Shown here in pieces: positions 34,694 through 64,000 of a stretch of 64,000 nucleotides of DNA. This stretch comes from a virus (taxonomy: Duplodnaviria; Caudoviricetes). Position 1 is the stretch's first letter. Each line of letters starts with the position of its first letter. The notes below the pieces were generated by a model, which saw only the letters and a program-made list of their open reading frames with translations, was not told where the DNA came from and did not search any database. The DNA lies in the IMG/VR virus record IMGVR_UViG_2828164553_000001, positions 1-64,000 of that record; one strand, given 5' to 3'. The position numbers and the translations under genes are program-made.

Positions 34694-34741
34694 TGGGGTG
34701 GCTGAGGGGACTCGAACCCCCGACATCTGGAATCACAATCC
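34694..34741 (-). repeat. att core: 3' half of tRNA-His(GTG)
   Basis: GGATTGTGATTCCAGATGTCGGGGGTTCGAGTCCCCTCAGCCACCCCA; the tRNA 5' half is absent. Confidence 0.9.
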
Positions 34742-34778
34742 CGCCCTAGCCCGTAAGCATACAACGTTTTCTCGGATT

Positions 34779-34829
34779 TGTGACGCCGCGGGTGACGTAA
34801 AGATGACATCCGTGGCGTCACAGGTGACG
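34779..34829. repeat. Clustered RTGACR repeats, likely integrase arm-type sites
   Basis: GTGACG 34780, 34792, 34824; ATGACA 34803; inverted CGTCAC 34816. Confidence 0.6.
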
Positions 34830-34833
34830 CGCC

Positions 34834-34852
34834 AATTAGTCGGGGCTATAGA
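34834..34852 (+). promoter_or_regulatory. Candidate phage-RNAP promoter (left-end copy)
   Basis: AATTAGTCGGGGCTATA/GA, 17 of 19 nt identical to 47833-47851. Confidence 0.65.
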
Positions 34853-34907
34853 CCAAACGAACTCTAAGTGGGGAGGAAGCACTCCTCCCCTCTACGCCAA
34901 GACAGTT

Positions 34908-34923
34908 ATCCCACATATGGGAT
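34908..34923. promoter_or_regulatory. Palindromic operator-like site 1
   Basis: ATCCCACATATGGGAT; recurs at 37526 with one mismatch. Confidence 0.7.
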
Positions 34924-35030
34924 ATGATCCGACCTCACTATAGAGGAGCCACTTATAGCTCTCTTCCAGTCCTACCGGAGATGCGCTTCAAGTGACATTT
35001 CCGGCCGTGCCGGTTTCAACTGTTCAGCCA

Positions 35031-35065
35031 ATACCTCCGCCTTCGGGCGGGGGCGTTTTTCGTTT
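35031..35065 (+). terminator. Intrinsic terminator upstream of the RNAP gene
   Basis: CCTCCGCC-TTCG-GGCGGGGG then CGTTTTTCGTTT. Confidence 0.75.
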
Positions 35066-35101: not shown

Positions 35102-37522
35102 ATGCAATCTACCGCCCAGACGCTCCATGACCGCCAGCTCCAGCTGGAGTCCGAATCAACCTCCCTCGGCATTGCCCGCTACGAGAAGGCCCGCGCCAAT
35201 TCCGACGAGGCTGACACCGGCCCCGGCAAGAAGCTGGTCATGCAGGCGGTCGCGGCCACCGGCCAAGCCATCCGTGAGTTTGTCGAGAAGGCCAAACAGG
35301 GCGGCGGTGGCCGGAGACACACGGCGGTGAAGTGGCTGGAGCATCTCGACCCCGAGGGCTGCGCCTACCTAACTGCAGTGGTATGCGTGAACGCCCTGGC
35401 TGGTGAGCAGGCCAAGTTGACCGCCGTTGCGCGCTCTGTCGGCTCTGCCATCGCACAGGACGTGAACTACAAGAAGCTGCGGGACAACCACGCAGGCCTC
35501 TATCGAGTAATCCAGCAGCAGCTCAAGAAATCCACCTCCGCGCATCACTCGACCGGAGTGATGAACCACGCCCTCGCCAAGACCGAAACCGAAATGTTCG
35601 TGTTCACGCCGGACGAAGAGGCTCTGGTCGGCATGAAGCTGATCGACCTCTTCATCGAGGCGTCTGGACTGGCCGAAATCATCCTGACCAGACCCCGCCA
35701 GAACCAAACCGTCGCGATCCTGCAGGGCACCGCAGCGATCCGCGAGTGGCTCGCCAAGGCACACGAGAGCGCCTCGATGTTCCTGCCCGTGTGGATGCCC
35801 ATGCTGGTCCCACCCAAGGACTGGACGACACCCCGCGACGGCGGCTACCTCACCGACATCGGCGGGAGAGCGGACCTCGTGCGTACGCGCAACCGCGCCT
35901 ACAAGCGGGAGCTGGAGCAGGCCGACATGCCCAACGTCTACCGGGCGGTCAACCTCATCCAATCCACCCCCTGGAAAATCAACAAACCAATCCTGGAGGT
36001 GATGCAGGACGCATGGGCCGTGGGCGGCGGCTTTGCTGACCTTCCCGACCGCGACCTCTTGGAACTTCCAGAGCAGCCCGCCTTGCTGGTCAGCGATCCC
36101 GAGTTCTACAAGGAGCACCATGCCGATGAATTCAAGGCATGGAAGCGCAGCCGCGCCGAGGTCTACGAGGAGAACGCCCGCGGCACCTCCCGCCGCCTTT
36201 CGGCTGCACAGAAGATCGCTCTGGCCGAAAAGTTCAAAGACGAGGCGGCAATCTATTTCCCGCACAACCTGGACTTCCGCGGGCGTGTGTACCCTATTCC
36301 CTCAATCCTTACCCCACAGGGCGACGACCAAGCCAAGGCTCTGCTGACCCTGGCTGAAGGCGTGCCGCTGGGAGAGGATGGCGCGTTCTGGTTGGCAGTC
36401 CATGTCGCCAACTGCTTTGGCGTCGATAAGGTCGCCTTCGCAGAGCGCGTGTCCTGGGTGAGAGCAAATGAGGAGATGATCCTCGACTCCGCGCTTAACC
36501 CGCTCGACGGCCAGCGGGCCTGGTCCAATGCCGATTCGCCCTTTTGCGCCCTCGCCGCTTGCTTCGAGTGGCTGGGCTACTCAATCAACGGTAACGAGCA
36601 CATGTCACACCTGCCGGTCGCCCTGGACGGCTCTTGCAACGGCCTGCAGAACTTCTCGGCGATGCTCCGAGATTCCGTCGGCGGCGCAGCGACCAATCTT
36701 TTGCCGCAGGACAAGCCGGCCGACATCTACACAGCCGTGATGGACGTGGCCGCCGTGCGTGTAAGGGCAGAAGCAGAGGCAGGCAACGCTTGCGCTTTGT
36801 TCTGGGATGGCGCATTGACCCGCGGCATCGTCAAACAGCCGGTGATGACACTTCCTTACGGCGTCACCAAGTCCGGCATGCGCGGCCAAGTGCAGGCCAA
36901 CGCCAAAAAGGAGGGACTCTCGCCCTCCAACGAGCAGGCCGCTTACCTCGGCGACATTCTCTGGGACTGCATCGGCGAAGTCGTGGTGGCCGCGCGCCAA
37001 GCGATGGACTGGCTGAAGGAAGCATCGAAGGTCGCATCGGCGTCCGACCTCCCAATCGCGTGGACGACGCCGGCAGGCTTTCCTGTACTGCAGGAGTATC
37101 GGGAGGACCTCGGCAAGCGCGTCACGACGCACATCGGGGGAAAGCGCGTCGAATTAATCGTGGCTATGGACGGGAGCAAACTTGACCGCCGCCGCCAGGG
37201 TCTCGGCATCTCCCCCAACTTTGTTCACTCCTGTGATGCGAGCCACCTGATGCTGACCACCTGTCTCGCGTCAGACAACGGGATCACTAGCTTCGCGATG
37301 ATTCACGACTCCTACGGAATGCATGCCGGAAACACCGGAATCCTTGCCGCCTCGTTGCGTCACGCCTTTATTGAGCAGTACGAAAGCGACGTGCTGGGTA
37401 ACTTCAGAACCGAACTGGCCGAACAACTCCCGATAAAAAACGCTGCTGACCTTCCGAAGATTCCTCCCTTCGGTGACCTGGACCTCTCCGAAGTGTTGGA
37501 GAGCAGCTATTTCTTTGCCTAA
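35102..37522 (+). CDS. Single-subunit T7-like RNA polymerase
   Basis: DFRGRVY, DGSCNGLQ, R..VKQPVMTLPYG, PNFVHSCD, IHDSY, YFFA C-terminus. Confidence 0.98.
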   Translation: MQSTAQTLHDRQLQLESESTSLGIARYEKARANSDEADTGPGKKLVMQAVAATGQAIREFVEKAKQGGGGRRHTAVKWLEHLDPEGCAYLTAVVCVNALAGEQAKLTAVARSVGSAIAQDVNYKKLRDNHAGLYRVIQQQLKKSTSAHHSTGVMNHALAKTETEMFVFTPDEEALVGMKLIDLFIEASGLAEIILTRPRQNQTVAILQGTAAIREWLAKAHESASMFLPVWMPMLVPPKDWTTPRDGGYLTDIGGRADLVRTRNRAYKRELEQADMPNVYRAVNLIQSTPWKINKPILEVMQDAWAVGGGFADLPDRDLLELPEQPALLVSDPEFYKEHHADEFKAWKRSRAEVYEENARGTSRRLSAAQKIALAEKFKDEAAIYFPHNLDFRGRVYPIPSILTPQGDDQAKALLTLAEGVPLGEDGAFWLAVHVANCFGVDKVAFAERVSWVRANEEMILDSALNPLDGQRAWSNADSPFCALAACFEWLGYSINGNEHMSHLPVALDGSCNGLQNFSAMLRDSVGGAATNLLPQDKPADIYTAVMDVAAVRVRAEAEAGNACALFWDGALTRGIVKQPVMTLPYGVTKSGMRGQVQANAKKEGLSPSNEQAAYLGDILWDCIGEVVVAARQAMDWLKEASKVASASDLPIAWTTPAGFPVLQEYREDLGKRVTTHIGGKRVELIVAMDGSKLDRRRQGLGISPNFVHSCDASHLMLTTCLASDNGITSFAMIHDSYGMHAGNTGILAASLRHAFIEQYESDVLGNFRTELAEQLPIKNAADLPKIPPFGDLDLSEVLESSYFFA

Positions 37523-37525
37523 TAC

Positions 37526-37548
37526 ATCCCACATTTGGGATTAATCCC
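37526..37548. promoter_or_regulatory. Palindromic operator-like site 2 with an extra ATCCC half-site
   Basis: ATCCCACATTTGGGAT overlapping GGGATTAATCCC. Confidence 0.7.
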
Positions 37549-37986: not shown

Positions 37987-38132
37987 CACGCGAAATCGAA
38001 CGGCTGCTGGAACAGGCCGCCTTGGAAAACGAACTGTATGGAGCGGTTTTCGCCTCCACCGATGCCCGCCTTATCGAAGCCGGCTACCTCCCCGAAGAAT
38101 CAGAATTCCATGACCCAGAAGAAAGCGAATAA
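37983..38132 (+). CDS. 49-aa acidic protein (not in ORF track)
   Basis: ATGA coupling; MTREIERLLEQ...HDPEESE. Confidence 0.55.
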   Translation: MTREIERLLEQAALENELYGAVFASTDARLIEAGYLPEESEFHDPEESE

Positions 38133-38787
38133 GCGATACGTGTCCCCGGCCGGTGCCGCCATCTGGCCGCGGCTGAATGCCCCCGACACCAAGTACAACG
38201 CGGACGGCGAGTTCTCCGCCAAGCTCGCGATGGAAGAGTCAGACGCCGACACCCAGGCGTTCATCAAGAAGCTGACCGCAATCCGCGACGAAGCCTTTGA
38301 GCAGTTCAAATCCGAGAACCCGAAACATAAGAAGGCCGCACTGGCGGACTTCTTCGCTTCGGAAACGGACGACGAGGGTGACGAAACTGGCAGGGTTACG
38401 TTCAACTTCAAGATGAAGCACAAGATCAAGGCGAAGAAGACCGGCAAGGTCTACACAATGGTTCCGACCATCGTGAACTCCAAGAAGGAAGTGCTGAAGA
38501 ATCCGCCGAACATTGGCGGCGGCAGCCTTCTCAAGGTGAGCTTCGAGGCCGTCCCCTACTTCGCGGCGGCGGACAAGAAGTTTGGCATTTCGCTGCGCAT
38601 GGTCGGCGTCCAGATCATCAAGCTGGTCGAGTTCGGCGGCGCCAGCCGTGCAGCCGACGACTTCGATGAGGAGGATGGCGACGACATCGCAGACGGCGCA
38701 GATCGTCCGAGCGATGACGACGACTCCGATGATTCGGAAGACGACAGCGACAGCGACGGAGATGATGGCGACGACGGCGACTACTAA
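38110..38787 (+). CDS. ssDNA-binding protein (gp2.5-like)
   Basis: SPAG, PDTKY, IGGGS.LKV, VQIIKLVEFGG; long acidic tail ending in an aromatic residue. Confidence 0.93.
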   Translation: MTQKKANKRYVSPAGAAIWPRLNAPDTKYNADGEFSAKLAMEESDADTQAFIKKLTAIRDEAFEQFKSENPKHKKAALADFFASETDDEGDETGRVTFNFKMKHKIKAKKTGKVYTMVPTIVNSKKEVLKNPPNIGGGSLLKVSFEAVPYFAAADKKFGISLRMVGVQIIKLVEFGGASRAADDFDEEDGDDIADGADRPSDDDDSDDSEDDSDSDGDDGDDGDY

Positions 38788-39268
38788 GCCCTCGTCCAAG
38801 GTCACGAAGGGGGCGGCGCTTGCCGCCTCTTTCATTTTTTCCATAGACCCCGTTCCGGCTTCTCGCCCCCGCGTTACGCGCTGGGGCACGTACCACCTGA
38901 AGACCTACAAGACCTGGCTTGAAGCGGCAGGCAAGTACCTCAAGGGCCTATCCCACGTCGCAGGACACGGCATCCGCCCGGATACGCCACTGATCGTTGT
39001 CGCCGAGTTCGTCTGCCGAAAGCCCAAGACGACCAAGCTGTTGACGCCGAAGGGCGACATCGACAACTACCTGAAAGCCCCGCTGGACGCGATTACACAC
39101 GCCGGCCTGTGGGGCGACGACAAGTGGATCACCACCGTCGTCGCAACCAAGCGATTCCAGGAACCCGGCGAAGAGCCGCACACCGCGTTGTCAGTGTACG
39201 AAGCTCCGCGCGAGAGCCTGTTCAATCAACTCACTCAGTTCATCCGGGGGATCTTCCGGTGCGACTGA
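38765..39268 (+). CDS. rusA: RusA-family Holliday junction resolvase
   Basis: PVPASRPR, GDIDNYLKAPLDA...WGDDKWI. Confidence 0.85.
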   Translation: MATTATTKPSSKVTKGAALAASFIFSIDPVPASRPRVTRWGTYHLKTYKTWLEAAGKYLKGLSHVAGHGIRPDTPLIVVAEFVCRKPKTTKLLTPKGDIDNYLKAPLDAITHAGLWGDDKWITTVVATKRFQEPGEEPHTALSVYEAPRESLFNQLTQFIRGIFRCD

Positions 39269-39630
39269 AAAAGATGGCCAACCCTGACCAGCTGTTCGTA
39301 ACCGCCTCAATGACGCGGCCGGACCACTCTGTCACTGGCGCCGAACTGGCGCGCATCCACCGCTCGCAGGGCTTCTCCAAGATCGCAGTCCACTACGTCA
39401 TCGAGCGCGACGGAACCGTCTTCGACGGCCGCGGTTTGGACGAGCCGGGCTGCTTGGCCGCGCGCGCAAACGACCGATCGATCCAGGCGTGTCTGGTCGG
39501 CGGTGTCGATGACGCCCTGACACCAACCAACAACTTTTCCAAGCAACAGCGAATGGCGCTGCGGCGAGTCGTGCGTAAGCACGGTCTTCCCGTGGTGTTC
39601 GACCGCGTGTGCCCACTACAGGAAATCTAG
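39259..39630 (+). CDS. T7 lysozyme (gp3.5) homologue, apparently catalytically degenerate
   Basis: HYVIERDGTV..GR, SI.ACLVGG, NFSKQQ align with T7 gp3.5; Zn/catalytic residues are substituted. Confidence 0.85.
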   Translation: MRLKKMANPDQLFVTASMTRPDHSVTGAELARIHRSQGFSKIAVHYVIERDGTVFDGRGLDEPGCLAARANDRSIQACLVGGVDDALTPTNNFSKQQRMALRRVVRKHGLPVVFDRVCPLQEI

Positions 39631-40013: not shown

Positions 40014-40183
40014 TGGAAAAGGTTCAATCCGCAATGCGCCTCGCCTTCGCAAACGCCACCAAAAACGTGCTGAAGGAAGAACGCGAGCGTACCTACGCGA
40101 TGGTCCGTTCGGCTTCCAACCGCCAACTGGGCGTGACCCACCGCAAGACCATGTGGTCGGTCGAGCGTGTCAGCCGACGCTGA
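40013..40183 (+). CDS. 56-aa hypothetical protein (not in ORF track)
   Basis: GGAGG RBS, TAATG coupling. Confidence 0.55.
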   Translation: MEKVQSAMRLAFANATKNVLKEERERTYAMVRSASNRQLGVTHRKTMWSVERVSRR

Positions 40184-41801
40184 GTCTCAGTTCGTCGCCA
40201 AAGAGCCGTGCCCGAAGTGTGGTAGTCGCGACAACCTCGCGCGCTACGACGACGGGCACGGCTTCTGCTTCGGGTGCTCCCACTATGAGCCGGCAGATGG
40301 TGACGCCACACGCACGCAATCAAGGCCCCGCATGTCCGACGACTTTGCTCAGGGCGAAGCATCCGCCCTGGCCGCTCGCGGTCTGCAGGAAGAAACCTGT
40401 CGCAAGTTCTCCTATTGGGTAGGAAAGAACAAAGACGGCAAAACCTGCCAGATCGCCAACTACCGCCGCGACGGTCGCACCGTCGCTCAAAAACTCCGAT
40501 TCAAAGATAAGAAGTTCGCCTTCCTAGGCGACACCAAGGAAGCAGGACTGTTCGGCCAGCACCTCTGGCAACCCACGCGGCGATTAGTCATCACCGAAGG
40601 TGAAATCGACTGCCTTAGCGTGGCGCAAGTTCTCGGCCTGAAGTGGCCCGTAGTGTCAGTCCCGAACGGTGCGCAGGGCGCAGCCAAGGCCATCAAGCGT
40701 GAACTGGAGTGGGTCGAAAAGTTCGACGAAGTGGTCATCATGTTCGACATGGATGAGCCAGGCCAGACAGCCGCTCAGGAGGTCGCTGAAATCCTTTCGC
40801 CGGGCAAGGCACGCATCGCGCAGCTGCCGCTGAAAGATCCCAACGCGATGCTCCAAGCGGGCAACGGCGAAGCCATCGTCTCGTGCATCTACGAAGCTCA
40901 GACAGTTCGTCCAGACGGCATCGTGACCTTCGGCTCAGTACGCGAAAAAGCGCTGGCGCCAGTGGTCGTAGGGATGCCTTGGCCGTGGCCTGACCTGACC
41001 AACTACACGCTTGGACGACGCTACGGCGAAATCTATGGCCTGGGCGCAGGCACGGGCATGGGCAAGTCCGATGTGTTCGACGAAATCATCGTGTTCACGG
41101 CGACCACCTGCAACGAGAAGTGCGGCGTCCTCAAGCTGGAACAGCCACCTGCGGAAACCGCAAAGCGCCTGGCTGGCAAGTACGCATCCCGCCGCTTCCA
41201 TGTGCCCGACGCAGGCTGGACACAACAGGAGTTAGAAGACGCGTTCGACATCCTGGACAGCACCGGCAACGTCGTTCTTTACGACCACTTCGGCACCACC
41301 GACTGGGATGTCATCGCCTCCAAGATGCGGCACATGGCAGTTGCAGATGGCGTCAAACATATCTTCCTAGACCATCTGACGGCGCTCGCGGCCGACGCTG
41401 AGGACGAGAAGAAAGTGTTGGAACAGGTGATGGCTGCACTCGCCAAGTTGGCGATGGAGCTGAGCGTCTGCATCTACTTCATCTCGCACCTTACGACTCC
41501 CGAGAAGGGATCGCCCCACGAGGAAGGCGGGCGCGTGACCATCCGCCAGTTCAAGGGCAGTCGCGCTATTGGCTTCTGGTCGCACTTCATGTTCGGTCTG
41601 GAGCGCGATCAACAGGCGGCAGACATCTCCGTTCGCACCACAACGACTCTCCGCGTGCTCAAGGACCGCTACACCGGTCAAGCCGCGGGCAAGTGCATCT
41701 ACCTCCGCTACGACGAGCAAACCGGGCGACTCGTGCCATGCGCAGATCCCTACGCGGACAGCGGTGACGAGAGCTACGACGAAACACCGGGCGGCTATTG
41801 A
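40167..41801 (+). CDS. Primase/helicase (gp4-like)
   Basis: CPKCGSRD...CFGC, ITEGEIDC, FDMD, GTGMGKS, LDHL. Confidence 0.97.
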   Translation: MSADAESQFVAKEPCPKCGSRDNLARYDDGHGFCFGCSHYEPADGDATRTQSRPRMSDDFAQGEASALAARGLQEETCRKFSYWVGKNKDGKTCQIANYRRDGRTVAQKLRFKDKKFAFLGDTKEAGLFGQHLWQPTRRLVITEGEIDCLSVAQVLGLKWPVVSVPNGAQGAAKAIKRELEWVEKFDEVVIMFDMDEPGQTAAQEVAEILSPGKARIAQLPLKDPNAMLQAGNGEAIVSCIYEAQTVRPDGIVTFGSVREKALAPVVVGMPWPWPDLTNYTLGRRYGEIYGLGAGTGMGKSDVFDEIIVFTATTCNEKCGVLKLEQPPAETAKRLAGKYASRRFHVPDAGWTQQELEDAFDILDSTGNVVLYDHFGTTDWDVIASKMRHMAVADGVKHIFLDHLTALAADAEDEKKVLEQVMAALAKLAMELSVCIYFISHLTTPEKGSPHEEGGRVTIRQFKGSRAIGFWSHFMFGLERDQQAADISVRTTTTLRVLKDRYTGQAAGKCIYLRYDEQTGRLVPCADPYADSGDESYDETPGGY

Positions 41802-42079: not shown

Positions 42080-42696
42080 GCTACGGCGCCTACATCAAGG
42101 GCATCTTTCTGGACATGCCGGCCGCCGCACGCATCGTCTCCATCCTCGGTGGCGGCGCCCTGCGCTCGTTCTATGACGGCACTGCCGCCAAAGACTACGA
42201 CTTGTTCTTCCGTTCCTATCAGGACTACCTCGTTGCCTTCGCTGCGTTCGCGGACCAGGGCAACCGGTACAGGGAGCTGGCAGCGCCCAACGGCACCTCT
42301 CAGTTCCACGACCTGAGCACCGGCCGTCTCTTCAACTTGGTCGGCTTCCACTTCGACACGCCGCACGGCCATCGGGATGCATTCGATTTCCGCTGTTGCA
42401 TGTTCGTGGCGTGGCTGGAATTCAACCTTCCGACCACATCAGCGCACCCCGATGCTCCTGCAGACGCCGCGGCGAAGCGTCTCGTTGTGATGAACAACAA
42501 CGGCGACGAACGTACTTATGCTCGGATGCACCGCTACCGGGACTACGGCTACCGCCTCGACTTGGGTCTTGGTGAGGAACTCATCAAGCAGCCGGGTGAC
42601 GTTCCCCTGCCAAGTTTCGAGCGCGTCAAGCAGATCCTCAAAAGCTACCCCAAGGCAGCACGAGGAGTAGGCTCCGATGGCCTGGCTCGTCTTTGA
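42076..42696 (+). CDS. Nucleotidyltransferase-like protein (CCA/polyA-pol head domain)
   Basis: GGALRS...KDYDLFF, FDFRCC. Confidence 0.7.
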   Translation: MSYGAYIKGIFLDMPAAARIVSILGGGALRSFYDGTAAKDYDLFFRSYQDYLVAFAAFADQGNRYRELAAPNGTSQFHDLSTGRLFNLVGFHFDTPHGHRDAFDFRCCMFVAWLEFNLPTTSAHPDAPADAAAKRLVVMNNNGDERTYARMHRYRDYGYRLDLGLGEELIKQPGDVPLPSFERVKQILKSYPKAARGVGSDGLARL

Positions 42697-45967: not shown

Positions 45968-46290
45968 AGCGCCTACTGATACTCGCCGTTCTCGCCCTCA
46001 CGCTGGCCGGCTGCGACACCGACTTCCGCCCGCGCGAACCACGGGCCGATTACGGCTCGTGCCTGAGCGGCCACAACGAGACCAGCACGATGCTCACTGG
46101 CGGCGGCGTGGGTGCCTACATGGGTGGCGTCCCGCTGGGGAGCGGTATGCACATGGTCACCACGACGAGCTACGTCTGCGACAGGCATGAGTACCCCAAT
46201 GGCGACAGCCCGTCCTACTTTGCGGCCTACGACCAATACCTCGTGGACCTGGCGGCGTGGTACAAGCGGCACCCCGAGAAAGCACCTTGA
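45964..46290 (+). CDS. Lipoprotein of unknown function
   Basis: MKRLLILAVLALTLAGC lipobox. Confidence 0.75.
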   Translation: MKRLLILAVLALTLAGCDTDFRPREPRADYGSCLSGHNETSTMLTGGGVGAYMGGVPLGSGMHMVTTTSYVCDRHEYPNGDSPSYFAAYDQYLVDLAAWYKRHPEKAP

Positions 46291-47272: not shown

Positions 47273-47304
47273 ACCAGATGCCTCTGTTCCCGGCAGGTGG
47301 TCCG

Positions 47305-51743: not shown

Positions 51744-51816
51744 GCAACACCCGCACCTCTCCAAGCGTAGCCGTCCCTAGCGGAAGCCGACCACGGAGAG
51801 GTGCGGTTCTCTCCCG

Positions 51817-51853
51817 ACCGGAGGTCTCTTAACGGGGACCTCCGGTTTTTTTT
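51817..51853 (+). terminator. T-phi-like terminator after the capsid gene
   Basis: ACCGGAGGTC/GACCTCCGGT stem plus T-run. Confidence 0.9.
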
Positions 51854-51874
51854 CGGCCACTTTAAGAGAACCGC

Positions 51875-54585: not shown

Positions 54586-55043
54586 CCGTTCTCGAATATC
54601 GTCCGCCCAGCTCGGGGGACATCCTGAGCGTGGCCGCGCGTATGCGGGACGCCGACGTTTTGGAAGTCGCTGCTGCATGCGGCGACTCGCCTCTCGAAGC
54701 TCTCCTGAAGTCCTGCAACGACGCCGATGCGGTGTTCTGCATCGTCCTTGACGGGCACCCCGAGGGCATCTTCGGGGTCTCCTACGCGGGCGGCCTGGGA
54801 GCAACCGTATGGCTCTTGGGAACCGATGCCCTGGCAAACATCCCGCGTTTGATGGTGACCGAGACACGCCGCATCACCGATGATTGGCGCGACAGATTCG
54901 CCGTCCTGCACAACTTCGTGGACGACAGCAACGAGGTATCGAAGCGATGGCTGGCCGCCGTCGGTTTCAGTTTCTCGGAGCCAGTCCCCTATGGCCCCTC
55001 GCAGGTGCCGTTCCGCTATTTCTACAAGATCGGCCATGTGTGA
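54582..55043 (+). CDS. gp13-like (GNAT-fold) protein
   Basis: MRDADVLE, VWLLGT, NFVD..N....WL...GF. Confidence 0.8.
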   Translation: MTVLEYRPPSSGDILSVAARMRDADVLEVAAACGDSPLEALLKSCNDADAVFCIVLDGHPEGIFGVSYAGGLGATVWLLGTDALANIPRLMVTETRRITDDWRDRFAVLHNFVDDSNEVSKRWLAAVGFSFSEPVPYGPSQVPFRYFYKIGHV

Positions 55044-55500
55044 CGGCGGTGTTTTCTCCGTGCCGATCGCCATGGCAGTCATCGGAGCTGGCACCGCCGT
55101 ATACCAGGGCAAGCAACAAGCCAAAGCCATCGGCGAGCAGATGCAAGCCGAGCAGAACCAGATCGACGCGAAGGCGCAGGTGGACACGCTGCAACGCATG
55201 GCTGAAGCACGGTCCCTCCGTGCAACGGCGCGCGCATCGGCCGCAGAAGCAGCCATCGGTGGCAACTCCCTGCAGGCAATCGACAACGACATCATGGCCC
55301 AGGCAGGCCGCGACGTGGCGATGATCGAGGGCAACCGTGAGCGCGGCGTCGCCGCATCTTCCGCAGATGCCGCAGCTCGTACGCGAGTCGCCAACGCCGA
55401 GATGGTCGGCGGCGTAATCAATACAGCCGCGAGCGGCGCCACCAGCGCCTACAGCACCTATCAGATCAAGAAGCGAGGCGACACCAATGGCAAGGGTTAA
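55036..55500 (+). CDS. Internal virion protein gp14-like
   Basis: MC start, hydrophobic N-terminus, A.AAE..IGGNS. Confidence 0.8.
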   Translation: MCDGGVFSVPIAMAVIGAGTAVYQGKQQAKAIGEQMQAEQNQIDAKAQVDTLQRMAEARSLRATARASAAEAAIGGNSLQAIDNDIMAQAGRDVAMIEGNRERGVAASSADAAARTRVANAEMVGGVINTAASGATSAYSTYQIKKRGDTNGKG

Positions 55501-57679
55501 TGAGCGCGGCATTCAGCGCCGTGCCGTGATCGAGTCGCGGCAATCTGCACCCGAGCAGTACCGCATCCAGGTCAGCGGCGCAGCCGCACAAAGCTACTCT
55601 GCGGTCTCCAATATCTCCGCAGGCATCCTCGGGCGCCTGTCGGCTGCGGCCAGTGGCATTCAGCAGGACCGGCAGTTCCGCCAGAACGGCGAGGATACCC
55701 TTCAGGGCCAGCAGCAACGCACTCAAGAATCCGTCGAAGGCCAGGCCGCGCAGTCGGAAGATGCACTCGCATCTTTCACTCCGGCCTTCCGCCGCGGCTA
55801 CTTCGTGACCGAGGCGTCAAACAAGATCAACGACGCCAAGCGGGGCCTGATCGCGCGCGTCGCTGCGATGGACGTGGGTGAAGACCCGCAGGCGATCATC
55901 CAGGAAACCCTGGGTGGTCTGATGCAGCAGAAGGAGTTCCAAGACCCGCAAGTCATGGCACAGCTGCAGCCCGCGATCCAGCAGATGCGCCAACAGGCGC
56001 TCGATGTCCACTCCAAGACCGAGACAGCTGAACTTCTGGAGCGACAGACCGAGAACGTCGGCGCAATGCTGCGCACTGCAGCCCTCGACGGATCGCTACT
56101 GAAGCCAGGCGCCATCGAGAACTTCGCCAAGGCGCTTGACACCGAAGAATTCGCCTTTGTGTCCCGCAATGAGTTCTACGACCAGGCCGCTGGGCAGATC
56201 GTGGACGTGCTGGCGACCGGCGAGGGAAACATCCAGGCGCTCTCCGAGTTCGCCCGGAGGACCACCGACGAGAACGGCACCTCCCTATGGGATCGCAAGC
56301 ACGGCGAGGGGACCTGGGGCGACACTTTTACCCAAGCCGCCCGCGCTGGTGCTGCAATCCAGCAACGGATGCTGGAGGAGCGGCAGGCGTCCGTGCAGGC
56401 CGAGAAAGAGGTCACATGGCAGGACCAGGCCTATGTTGGTCGCATGACCCAGGCGAGCATCAATGCCAACGCGGATGCTCTTGGCCTGTCCGGCAAGGAT
56501 CGCCACACGTTCGTCCGCCATTGGTACGACCAGAACCAAGCCGGCATACGCCGGATGGAACAGGAAGCCAAGGAGGCGGCACGCCACAAGGAAACCATCC
56601 AAGTTCTTACAGCGGGGCAAGGACTCACGCTTGAGACTCACCAGCTGCAGAAGGCGTTCTCGAAGGAGTGGACGGATGCGGTCAAGGCTGGCAACAAGCA
56701 GGCGATGGGTACCGCCCTGGCCCGTGCTACGAGAGCCGGCGTAGTCATCCCCGCTGTGCAGGACCTCATTGGCCGCACCACTTCAACGAACCTGACGCAG
56801 AACTACGCCACCTACAAGGCTATCGCCGACATCGACCCCATTACCGCCATGCGGTACGTGTCGGAAGACAACGCGATTCTCATGAACGAATACCACGAGA
56901 ACCGAACGACATTCGGCATGAGCGAGCAAGAGGCACTTCAGCATGTCACACGTCCTGAGCAGAAAGCAGTCCGTGCTGAGGTCTCCGCGCGAATTGGCCG
57001 AGCTGCTACCGCGTACTTCAAGAAGATGGATGAGATGCCTGACGGCTCGCCTATGCCGCCGTGGCTGCATGATCGCGTCCAGCGTGAGGCGACTCGACTA
57101 GCAGTTCGCAACCCTATGGCCCCACCGGACGCCGCCGTCGCCACAGCATTCAAACGCGTTCAAGGCGACTTGGCGAACGTCAACGGTCGCTGGGTGGCCC
57201 GCGGGGGAATGCGGGCAGGAGCGGAATCGGGCGTAACGGAGTTTGTCAGGCGCGCGGCGGCAGATGCTGAAAAATCCGGGGCAATACCGAAGGGAACAGC
57301 AAGCGGAGTCTTTGCTGCACCTACAGAAGATGACCCAAACGTGTTCATTCTCCACAGCCGCGACGGCTTCCCCATTTATGGAAAGGCCAGCGACGGTACT
57401 CAGCGCCCTGTGCTGTTTGATCCCAACAAAACTGCTGCTGGCGTCAATCAGTGGAAACGCGACGAAGCGGAGAAGCAGGCCCGATTCGATGCGCAGAACA
57501 AGCCCAAGCTCACTGTAATGGGGCTCGACCCCACACAGGCGGCGGCAATGCGTACTGCCAAGGGCGACCCGTCGCTGAAGCCTACGGTACTGAAGCTGGG
57601 CGACAAACCCGCTCCAGCGGGGCCGAAGCGCACGGACGCCACCGACATGCTCGACTACCTCTCAACCTTCAAGAACTAG
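55487..57679 (+). CDS. Internal virion protein gp15-like
   Basis: 730 aa; synteny. Confidence 0.75.
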   Translation: MARVNERGIQRRAVIESRQSAPEQYRIQVSGAAAQSYSAVSNISAGILGRLSAAASGIQQDRQFRQNGEDTLQGQQQRTQESVEGQAAQSEDALASFTPAFRRGYFVTEASNKINDAKRGLIARVAAMDVGEDPQAIIQETLGGLMQQKEFQDPQVMAQLQPAIQQMRQQALDVHSKTETAELLERQTENVGAMLRTAALDGSLLKPGAIENFAKALDTEEFAFVSRNEFYDQAAGQIVDVLATGEGNIQALSEFARRTTDENGTSLWDRKHGEGTWGDTFTQAARAGAAIQQRMLEERQASVQAEKEVTWQDQAYVGRMTQASINANADALGLSGKDRHTFVRHWYDQNQAGIRRMEQEAKEAARHKETIQVLTAGQGLTLETHQLQKAFSKEWTDAVKAGNKQAMGTALARATRAGVVIPAVQDLIGRTTSTNLTQNYATYKAIADIDPITAMRYVSEDNAILMNEYHENRTTFGMSEQEALQHVTRPEQKAVRAEVSARIGRAATAYFKKMDEMPDGSPMPPWLHDRVQREATRLAVRNPMAPPDAAVATAFKRVQGDLANVNGRWVARGGMRAGAESGVTEFVRRAAADAEKSGAIPKGTASGVFAAPTEDDPNVFILHSRDGFPIYGKASDGTQRPVLFDPNKTAAGVNQWKRDEAEKQARFDAQNKPKLTVMGLDPTQAAAMRTAKGDPSLKPTVLKLGDKPAPAGPKRTDATDMLDYLSTFKN

Positions 57680-57686
57680 GAATCTA

Positions 57687-60600
57687 ATGCCGACCAGCAT
57701 CTTTGACCTCACTGCGCCTGCGAAACCGAGAGACCTCAATGAGGTTGTCGCGGAATCGACCCGCAATAACGAGGGTGGACATGTAGCCCGCGTTATGCGC
57801 CGAAAAGAAGCCGAAGCGGCCGACCAGAAGCGCAAGGACGAGACGCCGTTCGGTGAGCTGGTCGGCGCCTCCCAAGTGCAGGGTGGAATCGGCATGATCC
57901 ACCGCGCGTACCAGGAAGACTCGGTGCTTTCCCGTGCCGATCCGGAGTGGAAACTCCCCGAGAAGTTTCAGGCGGAGATGGACCAATTCGGGATCGGCAC
58001 GGATCAGTGGGAACTTTTCAGCCGCGCAACCTCGCAGGAGCATTATGAGCTTCTTCGGGAATTTGCACTTCAAAACGAGATGGCGAAGGAGACCCGTGCG
58101 TCCTTCGGCATGCTCTCAAACTTCGCGTCGGACATGACTGATCCGGTGTTCTTCGCCGCAGACGCTGCCACGGGCGGCCTCGCCCGAGGCGCACGTGCCG
58201 GACGCTTGGCGAATTCTATCCGCGCAGGCTTGGCAGCTGGTACGACCAATGCGGCGATGACGCTCGGAAACTCCAGGTTCAACTCTGAAATCGGAAGCGC
58301 GGATGTCGCTATCTCAGCGGCAGCGGGATTCGCATTAGGCAGCGCCCTCGGAGCACGACGAGGGGAGCATTTCGCGGAATCCGTGAAGGTCGAAGACCTC
58401 GCCAGAAGGGACATCACAGGATCATCCCAAAGCTTGGGCGCGGCGCGCTTGAATGGCCTTCCCGACAACCCAACCCCAGGAATCTCAGAACGCTCTCTTT
58501 CGGATGCGATGCAGGCCCAAGTTGACCGTGGCGTGGACGAGGTATCCATTCAACCTGCCTTCGCCAACATCCGCCTTGCCTTGTCGGCGCAGATGGGGAA
58601 GCTGAAAGATCCAACCGCGCGTGGCGTCGGTCGGTGGCTGTTCCGCGACGGCGTGGGCTACGCAGATCGAAACTTGGCTGTGAAGCAATCTGCAGGTGAG
58701 TACGCCAGCGTCAATCGCGCCACGCTGGAGACCCAGCTACATCGCGGCTTCAACGCAGCCTGGACGGCAGCGCGAGCGAAGCACGGACTGTCCCGCTGGG
58801 ACCGCGGCGGTGAGCTGGCGTGGAGCCGAAAGGTGGCAGATGTACTGCGAGGCGTAAAGGCCGACGACGAGACTGCAAACCAGGCCGCAGCTGCAATTCG
58901 GCCTGTACTCGATGCAACCTACGAGCTGGGCGTTCGTTCGGGCGTCTTGGAGCCAGGAAGCAAGAACCTTGACTACTTCCCGCAGATCCAGTCCAAGCAA
59001 GCGTATCAGCGCATCTTCGGAGAGATGGGCCTGAGCGAGGACCAAGGCGTCGAGCTGTATAAGCAGGCGATCATCGCCGACATGCGCAAGAACGGCGACG
59101 CCTCCAAGCTGGAGAAGTTCGACGAGATTGCTGGCGACTACGTAGGGACCTCCGACCGTGCCCTCCGGGCGCGCGAGAAGGCCGACGACCTGGGTGCGCT
59201 GACTTCCGACAAGCAGGCCGCTGTCCGCTCCGCCGAAGAGGCGCTGAAGGAGCTGGAGGGAATGCCCGGCAAGCAGGGCGACCGTCGCCGCAACGCAGCC
59301 CAGCGCCGCCTGGAGGACACCCGCCGCAAGCTGCAGCGACATAGCGAACGCTTGGACAAGGCCAAAGCTGGCCTAAAGGATGCGCTGGAGCATGAGCAGA
59401 AGACACTACACGCGAGGAATGAAGCCAAGAAGCTCGCCGACGACGGCGGCGTAGACGAGGAACTGGCCGAGCTATATGCCCGCGCACTTATCAAACGCGG
59501 CTCCAGCCTGGTAACTGGCGACACTGGCGCCCCCGTGCGTCCGCTCAACACCGAGTCATTGCAGGAACTCACCGATGCCCTGCGAGATGCTGGGGCGAGC
59601 GACGCGAAGATTACGTCGGTTCTTGGTCGGTACACCGCCCAGATGCAGGAAGGCGCCAAAGCGGGCGCGGCGAAGAAGCGTATCCGCTTCGACCCGAACA
59701 CCGAGATGACATTCACGAACCGCTACGGAGACGATGTGACCCTCAAGGTCACCGACTTCCTCGACAGCGACACCACCCGTGTCGTGTCGTCGCATATCCG
59801 TGAAGTTGTCGGCTGGTCGGCCATGGCTCAAAAGGGAAACATTCGGAACAAAGCGGAGCTGGACGCGCTTCAGCAGCTACTCCGCGAGCAAGCCATCAAG
59901 GCGGGAGATGATCCTGAGAAGACCCTGCGAATGTTGGACATCGGCGTCAAGTCAATCATGGGGCGCTCCACGGAAGTCAACCCAAACAGCACTGCGTCGC
60001 GCTGGTCGCGCGCGCTACGTGACACCCAGTTTCTCCGAGTGATGAACCAGGTTGGCTTCACGCTCTTCACAGAACTAGGGCCAACCGTGGCACACGCGGG
60101 CTTGATGAACACCGCGCGATCAATCGCCTTCATCGGAGACTTCCTCCGCCGCGGCGCGGACGGAACTCTGAAGTCTGGCGAGGCACGCTACATCGAGGAC
60201 CTCGTTGCGACTGGCACAGAGCACCTGCGCAGCCCTGCATTTATGCGGATTGAAGATGACGCTTTCATGCCATCGGTCTACGGCGACAGCAAGTTCGGCA
60301 GAACAATGGAGAATGCCACGATGCTCGGCCAGCGATTCACCAGCATCGCCTCGGGCATGGCCCCCATGAACACTGCCCTGCAGCGCATCGCAGGACGAGC
60401 AACGCTGATGAAGCTGCTTCAGCTAGCGAACGACAAGCGCGCTCTTTCGGAAGGAATGACCCGCCGGATGCGCTCCTACGGTCTCGATCAAGAGGCCCAG
60501 GACGCACTCTTCGCATCTCTCCGGGGCATCAAGAAGGTCGAAGACATCACGGAAGCTGGCCTGAGCTTGGCCGACCGTGAGCGAGTGGCGGCCTTCATGT

Positions 60601-61310
60601 TTCGCGTCACGCGTCAGCAGGTGATCGAAGGCGACGCCAGCGACTCCATCATGCTGATGCACTCGGCGGGCGGAAAGCTGGTCACGCAATTCCGTTCGTT
60701 CATGGCCTACAGCTATGAGCGGCATCTGCTGAACTCCGCCTACCACTGGAAGGACTGGAACACCTACATGATGGTCATGCTATCCAGCTCCATCGCAGCC
60801 CTGCAATGGGCCGCGCGCACGTCACTCAATACGGCGGACGATCCGGAGAAGCGCGAGAAGCAGCTTACGATGGGCAACTTCGTGGCCGCAGGAGTGTCTC
60901 AGTCCTCCTGGGGCGGCGTCATCCAGCCCATCGTGGACACTGCGCTGCCCCTCATGGGCCAAGACCCGGTGTTCGCCAACGCCCGCTCAACGGGCATGTC
61001 GACAAACATCGTGGGCGGTATCCCGGTAGTCGACTTCGCCAACCGCGTGATGGAAGCGTCCTCTATTCCGGCGCAAGCGCTCCGCGACGACCGTGAAGTG
61101 ACCCGTAAGGAGCTGGAGAGCGCAGCCAAGCTGTTCTGGTTCCAGAACCTGACAGGATGGCAGAACATCCAGCGTATGGCGCTCAAGGAGGCGGAGAGTC
61201 GCGGCTTGATAAGCGACGGCTCCGGTGAAGCTGCCGCACGTCGCGAAGACCGAGACAACAAGGAAGACTCTTGGACCGCAAAATCTCTCTTTGGCCTGGA
61301 CACTGAATGA
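57687..61310 (+). CDS. Internal virion protein gp16-like
   Basis: 1207 aa; YFPQ and QFRSF motifs; synteny. Confidence 0.8.
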   Translation: MPTSIFDLTAPAKPRDLNEVVAESTRNNEGGHVARVMRRKEAEAADQKRKDETPFGELVGASQVQGGIGMIHRAYQEDSVLSRADPEWKLPEKFQAEMDQFGIGTDQWELFSRATSQEHYELLREFALQNEMAKETRASFGMLSNFASDMTDPVFFAADAATGGLARGARAGRLANSIRAGLAAGTTNAAMTLGNSRFNSEIGSADVAISAAAGFALGSALGARRGEHFAESVKVEDLARRDITGSSQSLGAARLNGLPDNPTPGISERSLSDAMQAQVDRGVDEVSIQPAFANIRLALSAQMGKLKDPTARGVGRWLFRDGVGYADRNLAVKQSAGEYASVNRATLETQLHRGFNAAWTAARAKHGLSRWDRGGELAWSRKVADVLRGVKADDETANQAAAAIRPVLDATYELGVRSGVLEPGSKNLDYFPQIQSKQAYQRIFGEMGLSEDQGVELYKQAIIADMRKNGDASKLEKFDEIAGDYVGTSDRALRAREKADDLGALTSDKQAAVRSAEEALKELEGMPGKQGDRRRNAAQRRLEDTRRKLQRHSERLDKAKAGLKDALEHEQKTLHARNEAKKLADDGGVDEELAELYARALIKRGSSLVTGDTGAPVRPLNTESLQELTDALRDAGASDAKITSVLGRYTAQMQEGAKAGAAKKRIRFDPNTEMTFTNRYGDDVTLKVTDFLDSDTTRVVSSHIREVVGWSAMAQKGNIRNKAELDALQQLLREQAIKAGDDPEKTLRMLDIGVKSIMGRSTEVNPNSTASRWSRALRDTQFLRVMNQVGFTLFTELGPTVAHAGLMNTARSIAFIGDFLRRGADGTLKSGEARYIEDLVATGTEHLRSPAFMRIEDDAFMPSVYGDSKFGRTMENATMLGQRFTSIASGMAPMNTALQRIAGRATLMKLLQLANDKRALSEGMTRRMRSYGLDQEAQDALFASLRGIKKVEDITEAGLSLADRERVAAFMFRVTRQQVIEGDASDSIMLMHSAGGKLVTQFRSFMAYSYERHLLNSAYHWKDWNTYMMVMLSSSIAALQWAARTSLNTADDPEKREKQLTMGNFVAAGVSQSSWGGVIQPIVDTALPLMGQDPVFANARSTGMSTNIVGGIPVVDFANRVMEASSIPAQALRDDREVTRKELESAAKLFWFQNLTGWQNIQRMALKEAESRGLISDGSGEAAARREDRDNKEDSWTAKSLFGLDTE

Positions 61311-63340
61311 TTGAACAAAACCGAGGCCTGTCCTTCGTGGCTTACACCTACGAAGGCGGGCCTCGGCGCTTCACCTGCACGTTCCCGCGACTGAAGCAGG
61401 AACACGTGCGCGTGCTTGTGGGTGACCCAAAGTCACCCCGGACGGTACTCGGCAAGTGGATCAACGCCACGACCGTCGAGATTCCCGACCAATCCGAATA
61501 CCTCGCGACGCCTTACAGCGTCCTACTGCGCCGGGTTACGCCGTTCGCAGAACAGGCGATCCTCTTTCAGGACGCCGCAACACTGCCGGCAGGCCAGCTC
61601 AACACCGCCATCCGGCAGCTTCTCTTCGTACAGCAGGAGGTTGCCGAGTTTGGCGTCGGCACCGGAAGCGTGCCAGGCAGTGGGCTGCCGGGGAACGGCG
61701 GGGGCAACCTGCCGGATATCCAGACCATCGTCGACCAGGTCGTGCAGTCGCCGGCCTACCAGATTCTCCAGCAACGCATCCCAGAGATTGACGCCAACGC
61801 CGAACTCATCATGCAGGAGCTTCTCCGCTCCAATGAGTTCTTCGACACGAAGCGCGACTACGGAGACCGCATCTCCGAAGCGTCCACCCGCATCGCCCTC
61901 ATTGAAGACGGCGACAAGGTGACTGCTGAGCAGATCACCACGCTATTGGCTAGGATGGTCAGGAATGAGACCGATGTAGCGGCCAGCTTCGATCAGATCA
62001 ACCGGGCAATCGCCACGGAGACTGAAGCGCGTGTCGAATCGCTCACCGACATGCACGCGCAGATCGCCGCGGAGACCGGAACGCTTGTTGCTCAGGCGGT
62101 CGATAGTGTGGAGGTGGTAGTCAACAAGGTCGAGTCGAGAGTCACTACGGCCGAGGGCCGGCTGGCGGTCCACGGCGAATCCATCGCGGCTACCAATGAA
62201 TCATTGGAAGTCGTCGCCAATGATGCCCAGGCAAGCACCGAGTGGCGTCAGCTGTTTGCTGCGCAGTACGGCGCCCCGGGCGCTACCGGCGCATCGGTGG
62301 CCGCCGCCGTCAAGCAGCAGATCGACACCAAGGCGACACCAGCCGAAGCACGAAGCATCGCCAACACGTCAGTGACGGCGTTCGCAAACGGCACCTTCGC
62401 GGCCCTGCAGCAGTCCTATACGGCCTATGTGAGTGCGAACGACGCCAAGTGGTCCGGCACGTGGTCCCTTCGGATCAACGGAGGCGACCCTAACAACCCA
62501 GTCGTCGCAGGTATCGCACTCAGTGCGTACCCTGGCGGATCGGACTTCGTTGTCCAGTCGGATCGCTTCGCCATCACGACCCCGACCGCGGGCTATAGCG
62601 CTCGCAAGTTCCCCTTCGTGGTCGGGACCGTGGGCGGCTTGAGCACGGTAGGAATCACCGGGCAACTGTTGGTGGATGGATCGATCACCGCGAACAAGCT
62701 GACCGTGAACTCGCTGGCCGCCATCACCGCCAACATGGGCACCGTCAACGGCGGCACGTTCAAGACACACACGCTCGATGTCAACGGCAACATCGTCAAC
62801 GCGCACGAGTTTCGCGTCGAACTGTCGAACGTTGGCACATGGCCCATCTGGGTCGGGGCCGGAGACAAGAACGAGAACAATGCCGTCTTCTGGGTAGATC
62901 GCTCGGGCAACGCAGGCTTCAAAGGCCGAGTATCTGCGCCAAACATTGTCGGCAACTTCAATCGCCTGGCCCCTGTAGATTGGACCGGATCGGTGTCGAT
63001 GAATAACACCACGGGAATCGTCAACTTCACGCTACCTGCGCCTGTGCTGCTGGGCGAATCACACACCCCGCTGATCGTACTCAGTGCAGGCGTGGACCAT
63101 GCGTCTTCGGACAATGGGCGTGCCTTCATCTACATCCAGAAGCTAGTTGGTGCGGCCTGGGTGACAGTGGATACCTACTTCATCATTCAGGGCTCGGGCC
63201 ACAAGTTCAACCATGCGCTCAATTACGTCGGAGACCCGACAACGGCGGAAGCCACCTACCGTGTGGCCATCGCCGATTCTTCGCGCGGTGACCGCTTGAT
63301 CATCACCAAGGTCCGTGGATTCATCCAAGGACTCCGATAA
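61307..63340 (+). CDS. Tail fibre: gp17-type N-terminal anchor plus lambda-J/DUF1983-like region
   Basis: F..L...HVRV, LRRVTP, F.DAA.L...LN; VAGIAL, SDRFAI, DGSITANKL. Confidence 0.85.
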   Translation: MIEQNRGLSFVAYTYEGGPRRFTCTFPRLKQEHVRVLVGDPKSPRTVLGKWINATTVEIPDQSEYLATPYSVLLRRVTPFAEQAILFQDAATLPAGQLNTAIRQLLFVQQEVAEFGVGTGSVPGSGLPGNGGGNLPDIQTIVDQVVQSPAYQILQQRIPEIDANAELIMQELLRSNEFFDTKRDYGDRISEASTRIALIEDGDKVTAEQITTLLARMVRNETDVAASFDQINRAIATETEARVESLTDMHAQIAAETGTLVAQAVDSVEVVVNKVESRVTTAEGRLAVHGESIAATNESLEVVANDAQASTEWRQLFAAQYGAPGATGASVAAAVKQQIDTKATPAEARSIANTSVTAFANGTFAALQQSYTAYVSANDAKWSGTWSLRINGGDPNNPVVAGIALSAYPGGSDFVVQSDRFAITTPTAGYSARKFPFVVGTVGGLSTVGITGQLLVDGSITANKLTVNSLAAITANMGTVNGGTFKTHTLDVNGNIVNAHEFRVELSNVGTWPIWVGAGDKNENNAVFWVDRSGNAGFKGRVSAPNIVGNFNRLAPVDWTGSVSMNNTTGIVNFTLPAPVLLGESHTPLIVLSAGVDHASSDNGRAFIYIQKLVGAAWVTVDTYFIIQGSGHKFNHALNYVGDPTTAEATYRVAIADSSRGDRLIITKVRGFIQGLR

Positions 63341-63350
63341 CGAGGAACAA

Positions 63351-64000
63351 ATGGCAGAAACACCAGGCTACGTTTCCAATGCAAAGCTTGCAGAGCGCAT
63401 CTCGGCATTGGTAGACCGCTGGAACACGCGCGAAAATCAGATGATCGCGCTTCTGGCTCAACCCGAAGGATACGTAACGGTCACTGACGGCCTCGGCAAG
63501 GATCACGTCCTACCGTCCTTTCTGCAGCTCTCCAGGGATGTCTCGGAGCTTGTGGACGAACTTACGGGCGCCGTCAGCGGCGCTTCCGAGTTCGCCAATA
63601 CGGCCCGACTGTACGCTGAGGGCGCGCAGGCGTCTGCCAACGATGCACAAACGAGCGCTGAAGACGCAGCCGTGCAACTCGCAGACGCGACCGGGCGGGC
63701 AGAAGCAGCGGCTGCAAGTGCGACCGCAAGCGCCGCAAGCGCCTCCGCCTCAGAGTCGAGCAACCAATCGGCCGGACTACACGACAGCGCTGCATCCGCC
63801 AGCGCAGCCGATGCTGATGCTGATGCGATCCAAGCATCGAACTCCAAGGCCCAGGCCGTGGCCTCCGCAAGCGCAGCAGCGTCAAGTGAAGTCCAGGCGG
63901 CTTCCTACGCCCACCAGGCGGAAGATTGGAGCGACCAGGCACAGTCGTGGGCAAACGCTCCGGCTGGTACTGAGATTGAGCCAGGAGCGTTTTCAGCTAA
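63351..64000 (+). CDS. Second tail fibre/spike, partial (not in ORF track)
   Basis: GAGG RBS; MAETPGYVSN..., Ala/Ser-rich stalk, AQSWANAP..EIEPG; open to the window end. Confidence 0.8.
   Translation, partial: MAETPGYVSNAKLAERISALVDRWNTRENQMIALLAQPEGYVTVTDGLGKDHVLPSFLQLSRDVSELVDELTGAVSGASEFANTARLYAEGAQASANDAQTSAEDAAVQLADATGRAEAAAASATASAASASASESSNQSAGLHDSAASASAADADADAIQASNSKAQAVASASAAASSEVQAASYAHQAEDWSDQAQSWANAPAGTEIEPGAFSA

Follow-up and report, generated by a model that had tools for sequence, protein, structure and literature searches.

An almost certainly complete T7-like prophage in the tRNA-His gene of Xanthomonas, with a candidate MarR-operator switch

The DNA considered here is the first 64 kb (the window) of a 121,172-bp contig which is classed as a provirus in IMG/VR (record IMGVR_UViG_2828164553_000001); coordinates above 64,000 refer to the remainder of the contig. 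Starting in the right half of the window, about 43.7 kb of T7-ordered genome is bracketed by two exact 53-bp direct repeats (Table 1). The bracketed segment codes for a single-subunit RNA polymerase (RNAP), followed by replication, virion, packaging and lysis genes, and closes with an early region, a MarR-family regulator and a tyrosine integrase. Phage T7 is the textbook example of a strictly lytic phage, and temperate relatives have been recognised only recently. The segment is almost certainly an integrated, complete T7-like prophage. The best overall explanation of the locus, which we hold with good confidence, is a complete temperate phage of this type (Autographiviridae) resident in a Xanthomonas chromosome, including the regulatory circuit described below.

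The left repeat, attL, contains the displaced 48-nt 3' half of a tRNA-His gene (minus strand, 34694-34741), and an intact tRNA-Lys(ctt) gene identified by ARAGORN lies directly to its left (minus strand, 34525-34600). The ATG of the RNAP gene, at 35102, is situated 361 bp past the repeat, in agreement with the distance of about 360 bp given in an earlier model-made reading of the DNA, based on the letters alone (the sequence-only reading). The second copy, attR, lies within an intact tRNA-His gene, and the stop codon of int is 32 bp short of it. The architecture of the two junctions shows recombination by the tyrosine integrase between the 53-bp core of attP and the tRNA-His 3' half, which restored the tRNA gene at attR and left its displaced half beside tRNA-Lys at attL. 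The attP core sits between int and the RNAP gene. The sequence-only reading had placed attP directly upstream of RNAP, and the repeats together with the right-end genes bear this out. Its list of the parts to be expected beyond the window (terminase, endolysin, regulator, integrase and an intact tRNA-His with the shared core) was also accurate, as all of these, including both TerS and TerL, occur on the same contig.

Since attP lies between int and RNAP, the integrated map is permuted: the genes for RNAP, replication, virion, packaging and lysis extend to the right of attL, and the early region comes last, beside attR. The anticipated separation of RNAP from its upstream genes is thus evident, with int and RNAP at opposite ends of the prophage. 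In metagenomic relatives that occur in free form (43% RNAP identity), int immediately precedes RNAP, the two being separated by a tRNA-like piece. The core is accompanied on the left arm by a cluster of direct and inverted GTGACG(C/T) repeats, and a reverse GTGACG copy is present on the other arm at 78242-78248; these repeats are candidate arm-type sites of the integrase. In two remote relatives, a SAR92 genome (L007 8090-8290; RNAP 28% identical) and a metagenome-assembled genome of the Comamonadaceae (L008 9315-9591; RNAP 42%), host tRNA genes with the same relative orientation are situated just upstream of the RNAP gene. A position of attP directly upstream of RNAP may therefore be widespread.

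A pattern search of 41 Xanthomonas species genomes revealed tRNA-Lys directly beside an intact tRNA-His in 40 of them, an arrangement that represents the empty attB site. The sole exception is a genome that carries the prophage, X. arboricola pv. juglandis CFBP 2528, in which the tRNA-Lys/att junction, located within a 962-kb contig, is likewise occupied by a 96%-identical RNAP. The tRNA-Lys/att/RNAP junction is common to at least five independent assemblies; the IMG/VR proviruses that share it comprise several isolate-derived ones and a metagenomic one. The host is Xanthomonas.

Table 1. Positions of features in the T7-like prophage and in the adjacent P2-like prophage (window coordinates up to 64,000, contig coordinates beyond).
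Feature	Position	Strand	Remarks
attL, 53-bp core repeat	34689-34741	-	exact match of 78354-78406; X. arboricola and IMG/VR relatives have the identical core
GTGACG(C/T) direct and inverted repeat cluster	34780-34830	+	beside core; block fully kept in X. arboricola copy
Phage-promoter-like element 1 (ATTAGTCGGGGCTATAGA)	34835-34852	+	upstream of RNAP gene
Operator-like palindrome O1, ATCCCA-N4-TGGGAT	34908-34923	.	180 bp upstream of RNAP start
Intrinsic terminator-like hairpin and T-run	35034-35062	+	RNAP leader; kept in X. arboricola copy
Single-subunit RNAP (T7 gp1 type), 806 aa	35102-37522	+	Pfam RNA_pol 3.8e-116 and RPOL_N
Phage-promoter-like element 2	37153-37170	+	inside 3' end of RNAP gene
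Operator-like palindrome O2	37526-37541	.	4 nt past RNAP stop codon
T7 gp2.5-type single-stranded DNA-binding protein (SSB)	38038-38787	+	Pfam SBB_T7 6.2e-17
RusA-like Holliday-junction resolvase	38582-39268	+	at T7 gene 3 position; phrog_140 1.1e-19
T7 lysozyme (gp3.5) homologue	39109-39630	+	1aro_L 1.6e-15 with alignment; Pfam Amidase_2
Primase/helicase (gp4 type)	40167-41801	+	Pfam Helic-prim_T7_N, Toprim, DnaB_C
Family A DNA polymerase (gp5 type)	42677-44590	+	Pfam DNA_pol_A 2.5e-38
Exonuclease (gp6 type)	46257-47099	+	phrog_107 1.1e-50
dNMP kinase	47122-47838	+	phrog_139 1.6e-55
Phage-promoter-like element 3	47834-47851	+	ahead of portal/structural genes
Portal	48253-49824	+	Pfam Head-tail_con
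Scaffold	49970-50716	+	phrog_1052
Major capsid protein	50793-51743	+	Pfam Gp10A-like
Strong terminator-like hairpin	51816-51857	+	3' of capsid gene; position of T7 Tphi
Tail tubular A, B (nozzle) and four internal virion proteins (gp13-16 types)	51875-61310	+	Pfam Phage_nozzle 3.4e-152
Tail fibre gene 1 (T7 gp17-type N-terminus)	61307-63340	+	Pfam Phage_T7_tail, Phage_Tail_Tip
Tail fibre gene 2	63315-65375	+	runs past window end
Holin	65817-66119		
TerS	66116-66361		
TerL	66361-68040		
GH24 endolysin	68206-68655		
Palindrome	70304-70318		just upstream of early promoter 1
Sigma70-like early promoter 1	70320-70348		
Palindrome	70572-70586		just upstream of early promoter 2
Sigma70-like early promoter 2	70593-70622		
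ArdA antirestriction gene	71966-72676		Pfam 1.9e-33
354-aa open reading frame	74604-75668	-	low-GC patch, variable cargo slot
MarR-family regulator, 134 aa	76645-77049		directly upstream of int
Tyrosine integrase, 420 aa	77060-78322		Pfam PF00589 6.2e-17 (catalytic domain); phrog_1 2.5e-44
Two palindromes	78251-78265, 78286-78300		in last 70 bp of int
attR, second 53-bp core copy	78354-78406		inside intact tRNA-His(gtg), c[78359-78435]
P2-like prophage: gpP-type terminase	5029-6813		
P2-like prophage: tape-measure-like protein	20594-23464		
P2-like prophage: Toprim primase-like protein	27251-29947		
P2-like prophage: integrase	32900-34087		

The intactness of the prophage was assessed against two complete relatives, designated G2 (45.0 kb; aligned blocks 83-93% identical in nucleotides, most of them 87-93%) and G3 (44.3 kb; identity of about 77-84%). 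Except for a few swapped cassettes, both are collinear with the prophage from attL to int. The roughly 35 proteins tested all align over their full or nearly full length with their counterparts in G2 and G3, and the impression from sequence alone of a T7-ordered genome free of visible pseudogenes is thus upheld: every gene is open and, by comparison with these relatives, full length. The ratio of nonsynonymous to synonymous substitution rates (dN/dS) is 0.02-0.08 for the RNAP, DNA polymerase, portal, capsid, TerL and Int proteins, at dS values of 0.2-1.2, and 0.04-0.07 for RNAP alone. Such values imply that the lineage evolved as a working phage.

The sequence-only reading had stated that nothing equivalent to T7 genes 0.3-0.7 precedes RNAP, which holds for the integrated map but not for the excised form, where the early region (70.3-77 kb) would precede RNAP; the early genes appear to be missing because attP lies between int and RNAP. 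The early region contains two sigma70-like promoters, several small open reading frames (ORFs) and an ArdA gene. The ArdA protein is the predicted counterpart of the T7 antirestriction gene 0.3 product, and its gene would precede int, attP and RNAP in the excised genome. Residues 76-116 of ArdA give weak additional matches to CxxCxGxG zinc-finger models (Anti-TRAP and the DnaJ central domain), which suggests a zinc-ribbon insert in this antirestriction protein.

Between the early genes and marR lies a cargo slot (74137-75808) which varies among the relatives. In the present prophage it holds an ORF of 354 residues on the minus strand, for which Pfam, PHROGs, PADLOC and the ESM Atlas returned nothing. 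The slot is occupied in six relatives by an ATP-dependent DNA ligase, and in another by a reverse transcriptase together with a helix-turn-helix gene, possibly a defence system. The positions concerned in the relatives include L020 1282-2193 and L059 4274-6087.

The regulator upstream of int is homologous to the MarR-family protein gp10 of Pseudomonas phage LUZ100 (4e-9, pairwise). A word-index search for homologues of the regulator returned only its own cluster; a profile built from 30 homologues, collected by an exhaustive search, matches solved MarR proteins in the PDB (3bpv, 7.8e-9). The alignment-based AlphaFold (AF2) model has a pLDDT (predicted local distance difference test) score of 93.5, and the top 50 PDB hits obtained for it with Foldseek are all of the MarR family, with TM (template modelling) scores of up to 0.65. 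The modelled protein fits a winged helix-turn-helix fold with N- and C-terminal dimerisation helices. On the combined evidence of pairwise homology, profile and predicted fold, the regulator is assigned to a divergent branch of the MarR family.

The putative target of this regulator is a 15-16-bp palindrome, ATCCCA-N4-TGGGA(T), which appears in six copies in the prophage and in none in the other 77 kb of the contig. In the window there are four strand-wise matches at two sites, compared to 0.27 expected. Four kinds of location are represented: one copy precedes the RNAP gene, one follows it, each early promoter has a copy immediately before it, and two copies lie near the end of int. After excision, the int pair would be a few hundred bp ahead of the RNAP leader. 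The X. arboricola copy retains the palindrome at all four of the orthologous sites available, and the flanks diverge around the site in the RNAP leader. The int pair (78251-78300) falls within the last 24 codons of the integrase gene. As these palindromes are part of the coding sequence, a change in operator type also alters the C-terminal tail of Int.

Comparison among the relatives reveals that the regulator and the palindrome vary together. Most proteins of G3 are 77-90% identical to those of the prophage, whereas its MarR is only 35% identical; the palindrome described above is absent from G3, which has ATCCAC-N2-GTGGAT instead at each of the four kinds of location. A prophage with a 61%-identical MarR displays ATCCCT-N4-AGGGAT, and one with a 42%-identical MarR displays GTCCCG-N4-CGGGAC. 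The ATCCCA half-site accompanies MarR proteins that are 99-100% identical. Four MarR variants are thereby paired with four half-site variants at the same positions, a pattern that points to a repressor-operator immunity module and provides, in our view, the best evidence here for MarR as the prophage repressor. MarR probably acts as a repressor on these palindromes.

Candidate promoters of the phage polymerase were recognised as an 18-mer, ATTAGTCGGGGCTATAGA, which occurs in three plus-strand copies, all confined to the prophage. G2 and G3 retain each copy at the orthologous position, and the copies are reasonably likely to be phage-RNAP promoters. The first copy may be a self-promoter of the RNAP gene, by analogy with phi1 of LUZ100, and the RNAP-leader hairpin sits between it and the RNAP start. 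A T7-consensus look-alike at 34933-34948 (CCTCACTATAGAGGAG) was rejected as a phage promoter, since it is a single copy and is unconserved in X. arboricola.

These elements can be combined into a proposed circuit. After infection, the host polymerase would transcribe the early operon from the early promoters; ArdA would protect the incoming DNA, and marR and int would be expressed. The first RNAP would arise from read-through past int and attP, or from a weak local promoter, and would then amplify itself from the phage-type promoter just upstream of its own gene and drive the middle and late genes from the two further promoter copies. In the lysogen, MarR would occupy the palindromes that accompany the early promoters, flank RNAP and lie at the end of int, and would keep the circuit silent. 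Integration would in addition sever RNAP from the early promoters. We lean slightly towards a prophage that is still inducible. More tentatively, and with rather more doubt than belief, we propose that the T7-like prophages of Xanthomonas possess modular immunity, wherein MarR and its operators would be swapped together between phages that are otherwise 80-90% identical, with at least four specificities, and RNAP positive feedback and the placement of attP would constitute two further locks.

Several observations weigh against the interpretation as a functional temperate phage. None of the small ORFs near int matched any PHROG family, such that no excisionase was recognised among them. The regulator itself has no hit to the Pfam models MarR or MarR_2; the latter is matched by 8 of its 30 homologues. 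Phage-type promoter copies number only three, fewer than in T7, and one of them lies within coding sequence. A sigma70-like promoter at 34899-34928, with a palindrome in its spacer, has a -35 box that is unconserved in the X. arboricola copy, and is kept as a weak possibility only. In addition, close relatives decay in place. In one of them (L031; 96% RNAP identity) the RNAP gene is interrupted at 7710-9063 by a 1.35-kb element of the IS3 family with an rve transposase, and this prophage copy is inactivated. The copy in CFBP 2528 is divided between two contigs (C3, 267545-282536, and C7, 91916-97461): the part from attL to the scaffold gene is on one large contig, where homology halts abruptly within the scaffold gene, and marR, int, attR and tRNA-His are at the end of the second. 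TerL was not found in CFBP 2528 with the query used, and this copy reflects either rearrangement into a remnant or a break in the draft assembly.

The missing excisionase match and the decay of these relatives would suit an intact-looking but cryptic prophage, in which the ORFs remain open but the element no longer excises, replicates or forms particles, as a result of a regulatory or att-arm defect or the lack of an excision factor. That phages of the LUZ100 type are so far without stable lysogens (PMC10134795) is in line with this alternative. It is opposed by the full length of every gene against two relatives, by dN/dS values that indicate long-term selection as a working phage over dS of up to 1.2, by the identity of the att cores and by the conservation of operators and promoters; we therefore consider it unlikely. 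Integration without true lysogeny, as reported for T7-like cyanophages, would make the integrated copy a by-product of infection. The RNAP gene does retain a promoter-like element of its own, a point in favour of this reading, but the prophage is fixed at the same site in the assembled isolate chromosomes of several strains, its regulator/operator system diversifies in the manner of an immunity region and its cargo genes occupy a moron-like slot, all of which render this explanation highly improbable. The misjoining of a lytic phage contig to the chromosome at about 34.7 kb, which the sequence-only reading had named as a refutation and for which the sole ground is the span of 121 kb in the IMG/VR provirus call, has practically no chance of being correct and is excluded by the recurrence of identical junctions in independent assemblies, the 962-kb contig of another strain among them, and by the empty site in 40 of 41 genomes, the duplicated core and the tRNA rebuilt at one end being equally at odds with it.

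The remaining genes of the temperate prophage conform to the T7 plan. From 35102 onwards the plus-strand genes follow T7 order, with identities established by Pfam, PHROGs (phrog) and PDB-profile matches. The RNAP is matched over at least 80% of the protein by 2502 phage records, and the lineage is considered distinct because the best phage identity is only 43%. The SSB gene is followed by a terminator-like hairpin (38806-38833). The SSB protein bears a long acidic tail encoded by imperfect 27-28-nt repeats (38658-38775), and this tail is longer than in the relatives, whose genes end sooner. The true start of the resolvase gene is probably later than 38582. Homology to gp3.5 begins at about 39259; in this protein Thr replaces the Zn-ligand His17 and Val replaces Tyr46, and the homologue stops before the C-terminal catalytic segment (His122/Lys128/Cys130). 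The genome contains a separate GH24 endolysin, and the gp3.5 homologue may have been kept only as an RNAP-binding regulator.

Further along, a gene for a nucleotidyltransferase-like protein is located between the primase/helicase and DNA polymerase genes, and one for an HNH/endonuclease VII-like protein between those of the DNA polymerase and the exonuclease. The tail and internal virion region also matches phrogs 446, 308, 805 and 342. After the endolysin gene come a lipoprotein gene and a 1.2-kb stretch with few plausible genes. The physical ends of the genome, with the predicted terminal repeats, probably lie in this non-coding stretch (69.1-70.3 kb).

Three consecutive prophages are present on the contig at a cluster of tRNA genes, the T7-like one being the occupant of tRNA-His. 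To the left of tRNA-Lys lies a P2-like prophage (1-34524) that ends at this tRNA gene. It includes the C4 antisense RNA, its a1b1 target and isrK (30009-30225; Rfam), and the island is absent from the X. arboricola locus. On the other side, directly after tRNA-His, there is a 45-nt 3' fragment of tRNA-Arg (78468-78512) followed by a UmuC-like gene and then the genes of a lambda-like siphovirus prophage (78468-121172), among them gpJ, a lambda-type tape measure protein, a ClpP-capsid fusion and a gpA terminase. An intact tRNA-Arg was not found on the contig, and the lambda-like element therefore runs off its end.

How temperate T7-like phages silence a self-amplifying RNAP is still a matter of hypothesis (PMC10134795). 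In the model put forward for LUZ100, MarR represses the RNAP promoter and RNAP amplifies itself (PMC10134795). The same report credits Boeckman et al. 2022 (Virology 568:86) with the proposal of MarR repression, with the observation that T7-like prophages are widespread in Gram-negative bacteria and with the suggestion that MarR sites flank the promoter upstream of RNAP (PMC10134795). In LUZ100 (OP329100), as in the prophage, MarR immediately precedes a tyrosine integrase; in LUZ100 a terminator, a phage-specific promoter and RNAP come next. The two RNAPs are 40% identical and the gene order is collinear as annotated. LUZ100 is a free phage from which no lysogens were obtained, whereas the prophage is seen integrated, at tRNA-His. 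A tRNA-Leu-like piece lies between MarR and int in LUZ100, as opposed to the core between int and RNAP in the prophage. The latter also has a RusA-like resolvase in place of endonuclease I, and a gp3.5 homologue devoid of catalytic residues alongside its GH24 endolysin.

Among other phages, Agrobacterium phage Pasto has an RNAP that is 39.6% identical and an integrase that is 30% identical to those of the prophage. The pelagiphage HTVC019P group and the cyanopodoviruses P-SSP7 and S-CBP1 are T7-like podoviruses in which a tyrosine integrase is encoded near RNAP and attP derives from a tRNA; the integrases match that of the prophage, and a MarR-family regulator is annotated beside int in S-CBP1. 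Unlike the prophage, these phages are marine and distant (RNAP-based relatives from such samples reach only about 28-30% identity), and their lysogeny is disputed. For Pasto and HTVC019P, lysogeny has been demonstrated according to the LUZ100 report (PMC10134795). Caulobacter phage S2B (MN857473) is among the closest sequenced phages (RNAP 42%) and resembles the prophage in its int upstream of RNAP, the small protein before int, the RusA resolvase, the same overall order and a size of about 45 kb. It differs in being a free phage isolate with 259-bp terminal repeats, and its protein before int has only marginal similarity to the prophage MarR (E 0.013). The T7-like prophage of Pseudomonas putida KT2440 is cited in the LUZ100 report as the earliest case in which a bacterial genome was seen to hold a prophage with T7 organisation (PMC10134795); it resides in a different host genus. 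In our comparison, 17 of the 25 best RNAP matches belong to records that are also among the integrase matches listed.

A literature search, which did not cover Boeckman et al. 2022, found no description of a T7-like prophage of Xanthomonas. In phage biocontrol of Xanthomonas, T7-like phages are usually assumed to be safe as lytic phages; relatives of the present kind can lysogenise and carry cargo. A complete prophage under purifying selection in a culturable, plant-associated genus renders the switch directly testable, and, should modular immunity prove true, no lysis-lysogeny switch of any T7-like phage would have been concretely mapped before it; the host is culturable, and natural heteroimmune variants could serve as controls. 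The MarR-int-attP-RNAP layout is already known from LUZ100, Pasto and the pelagiphages, and the four covarying types of MarR and palindrome come from the present comparison. To these known systems the prophage adds a switch whose components can be named to the base, together with natural variants that covary.

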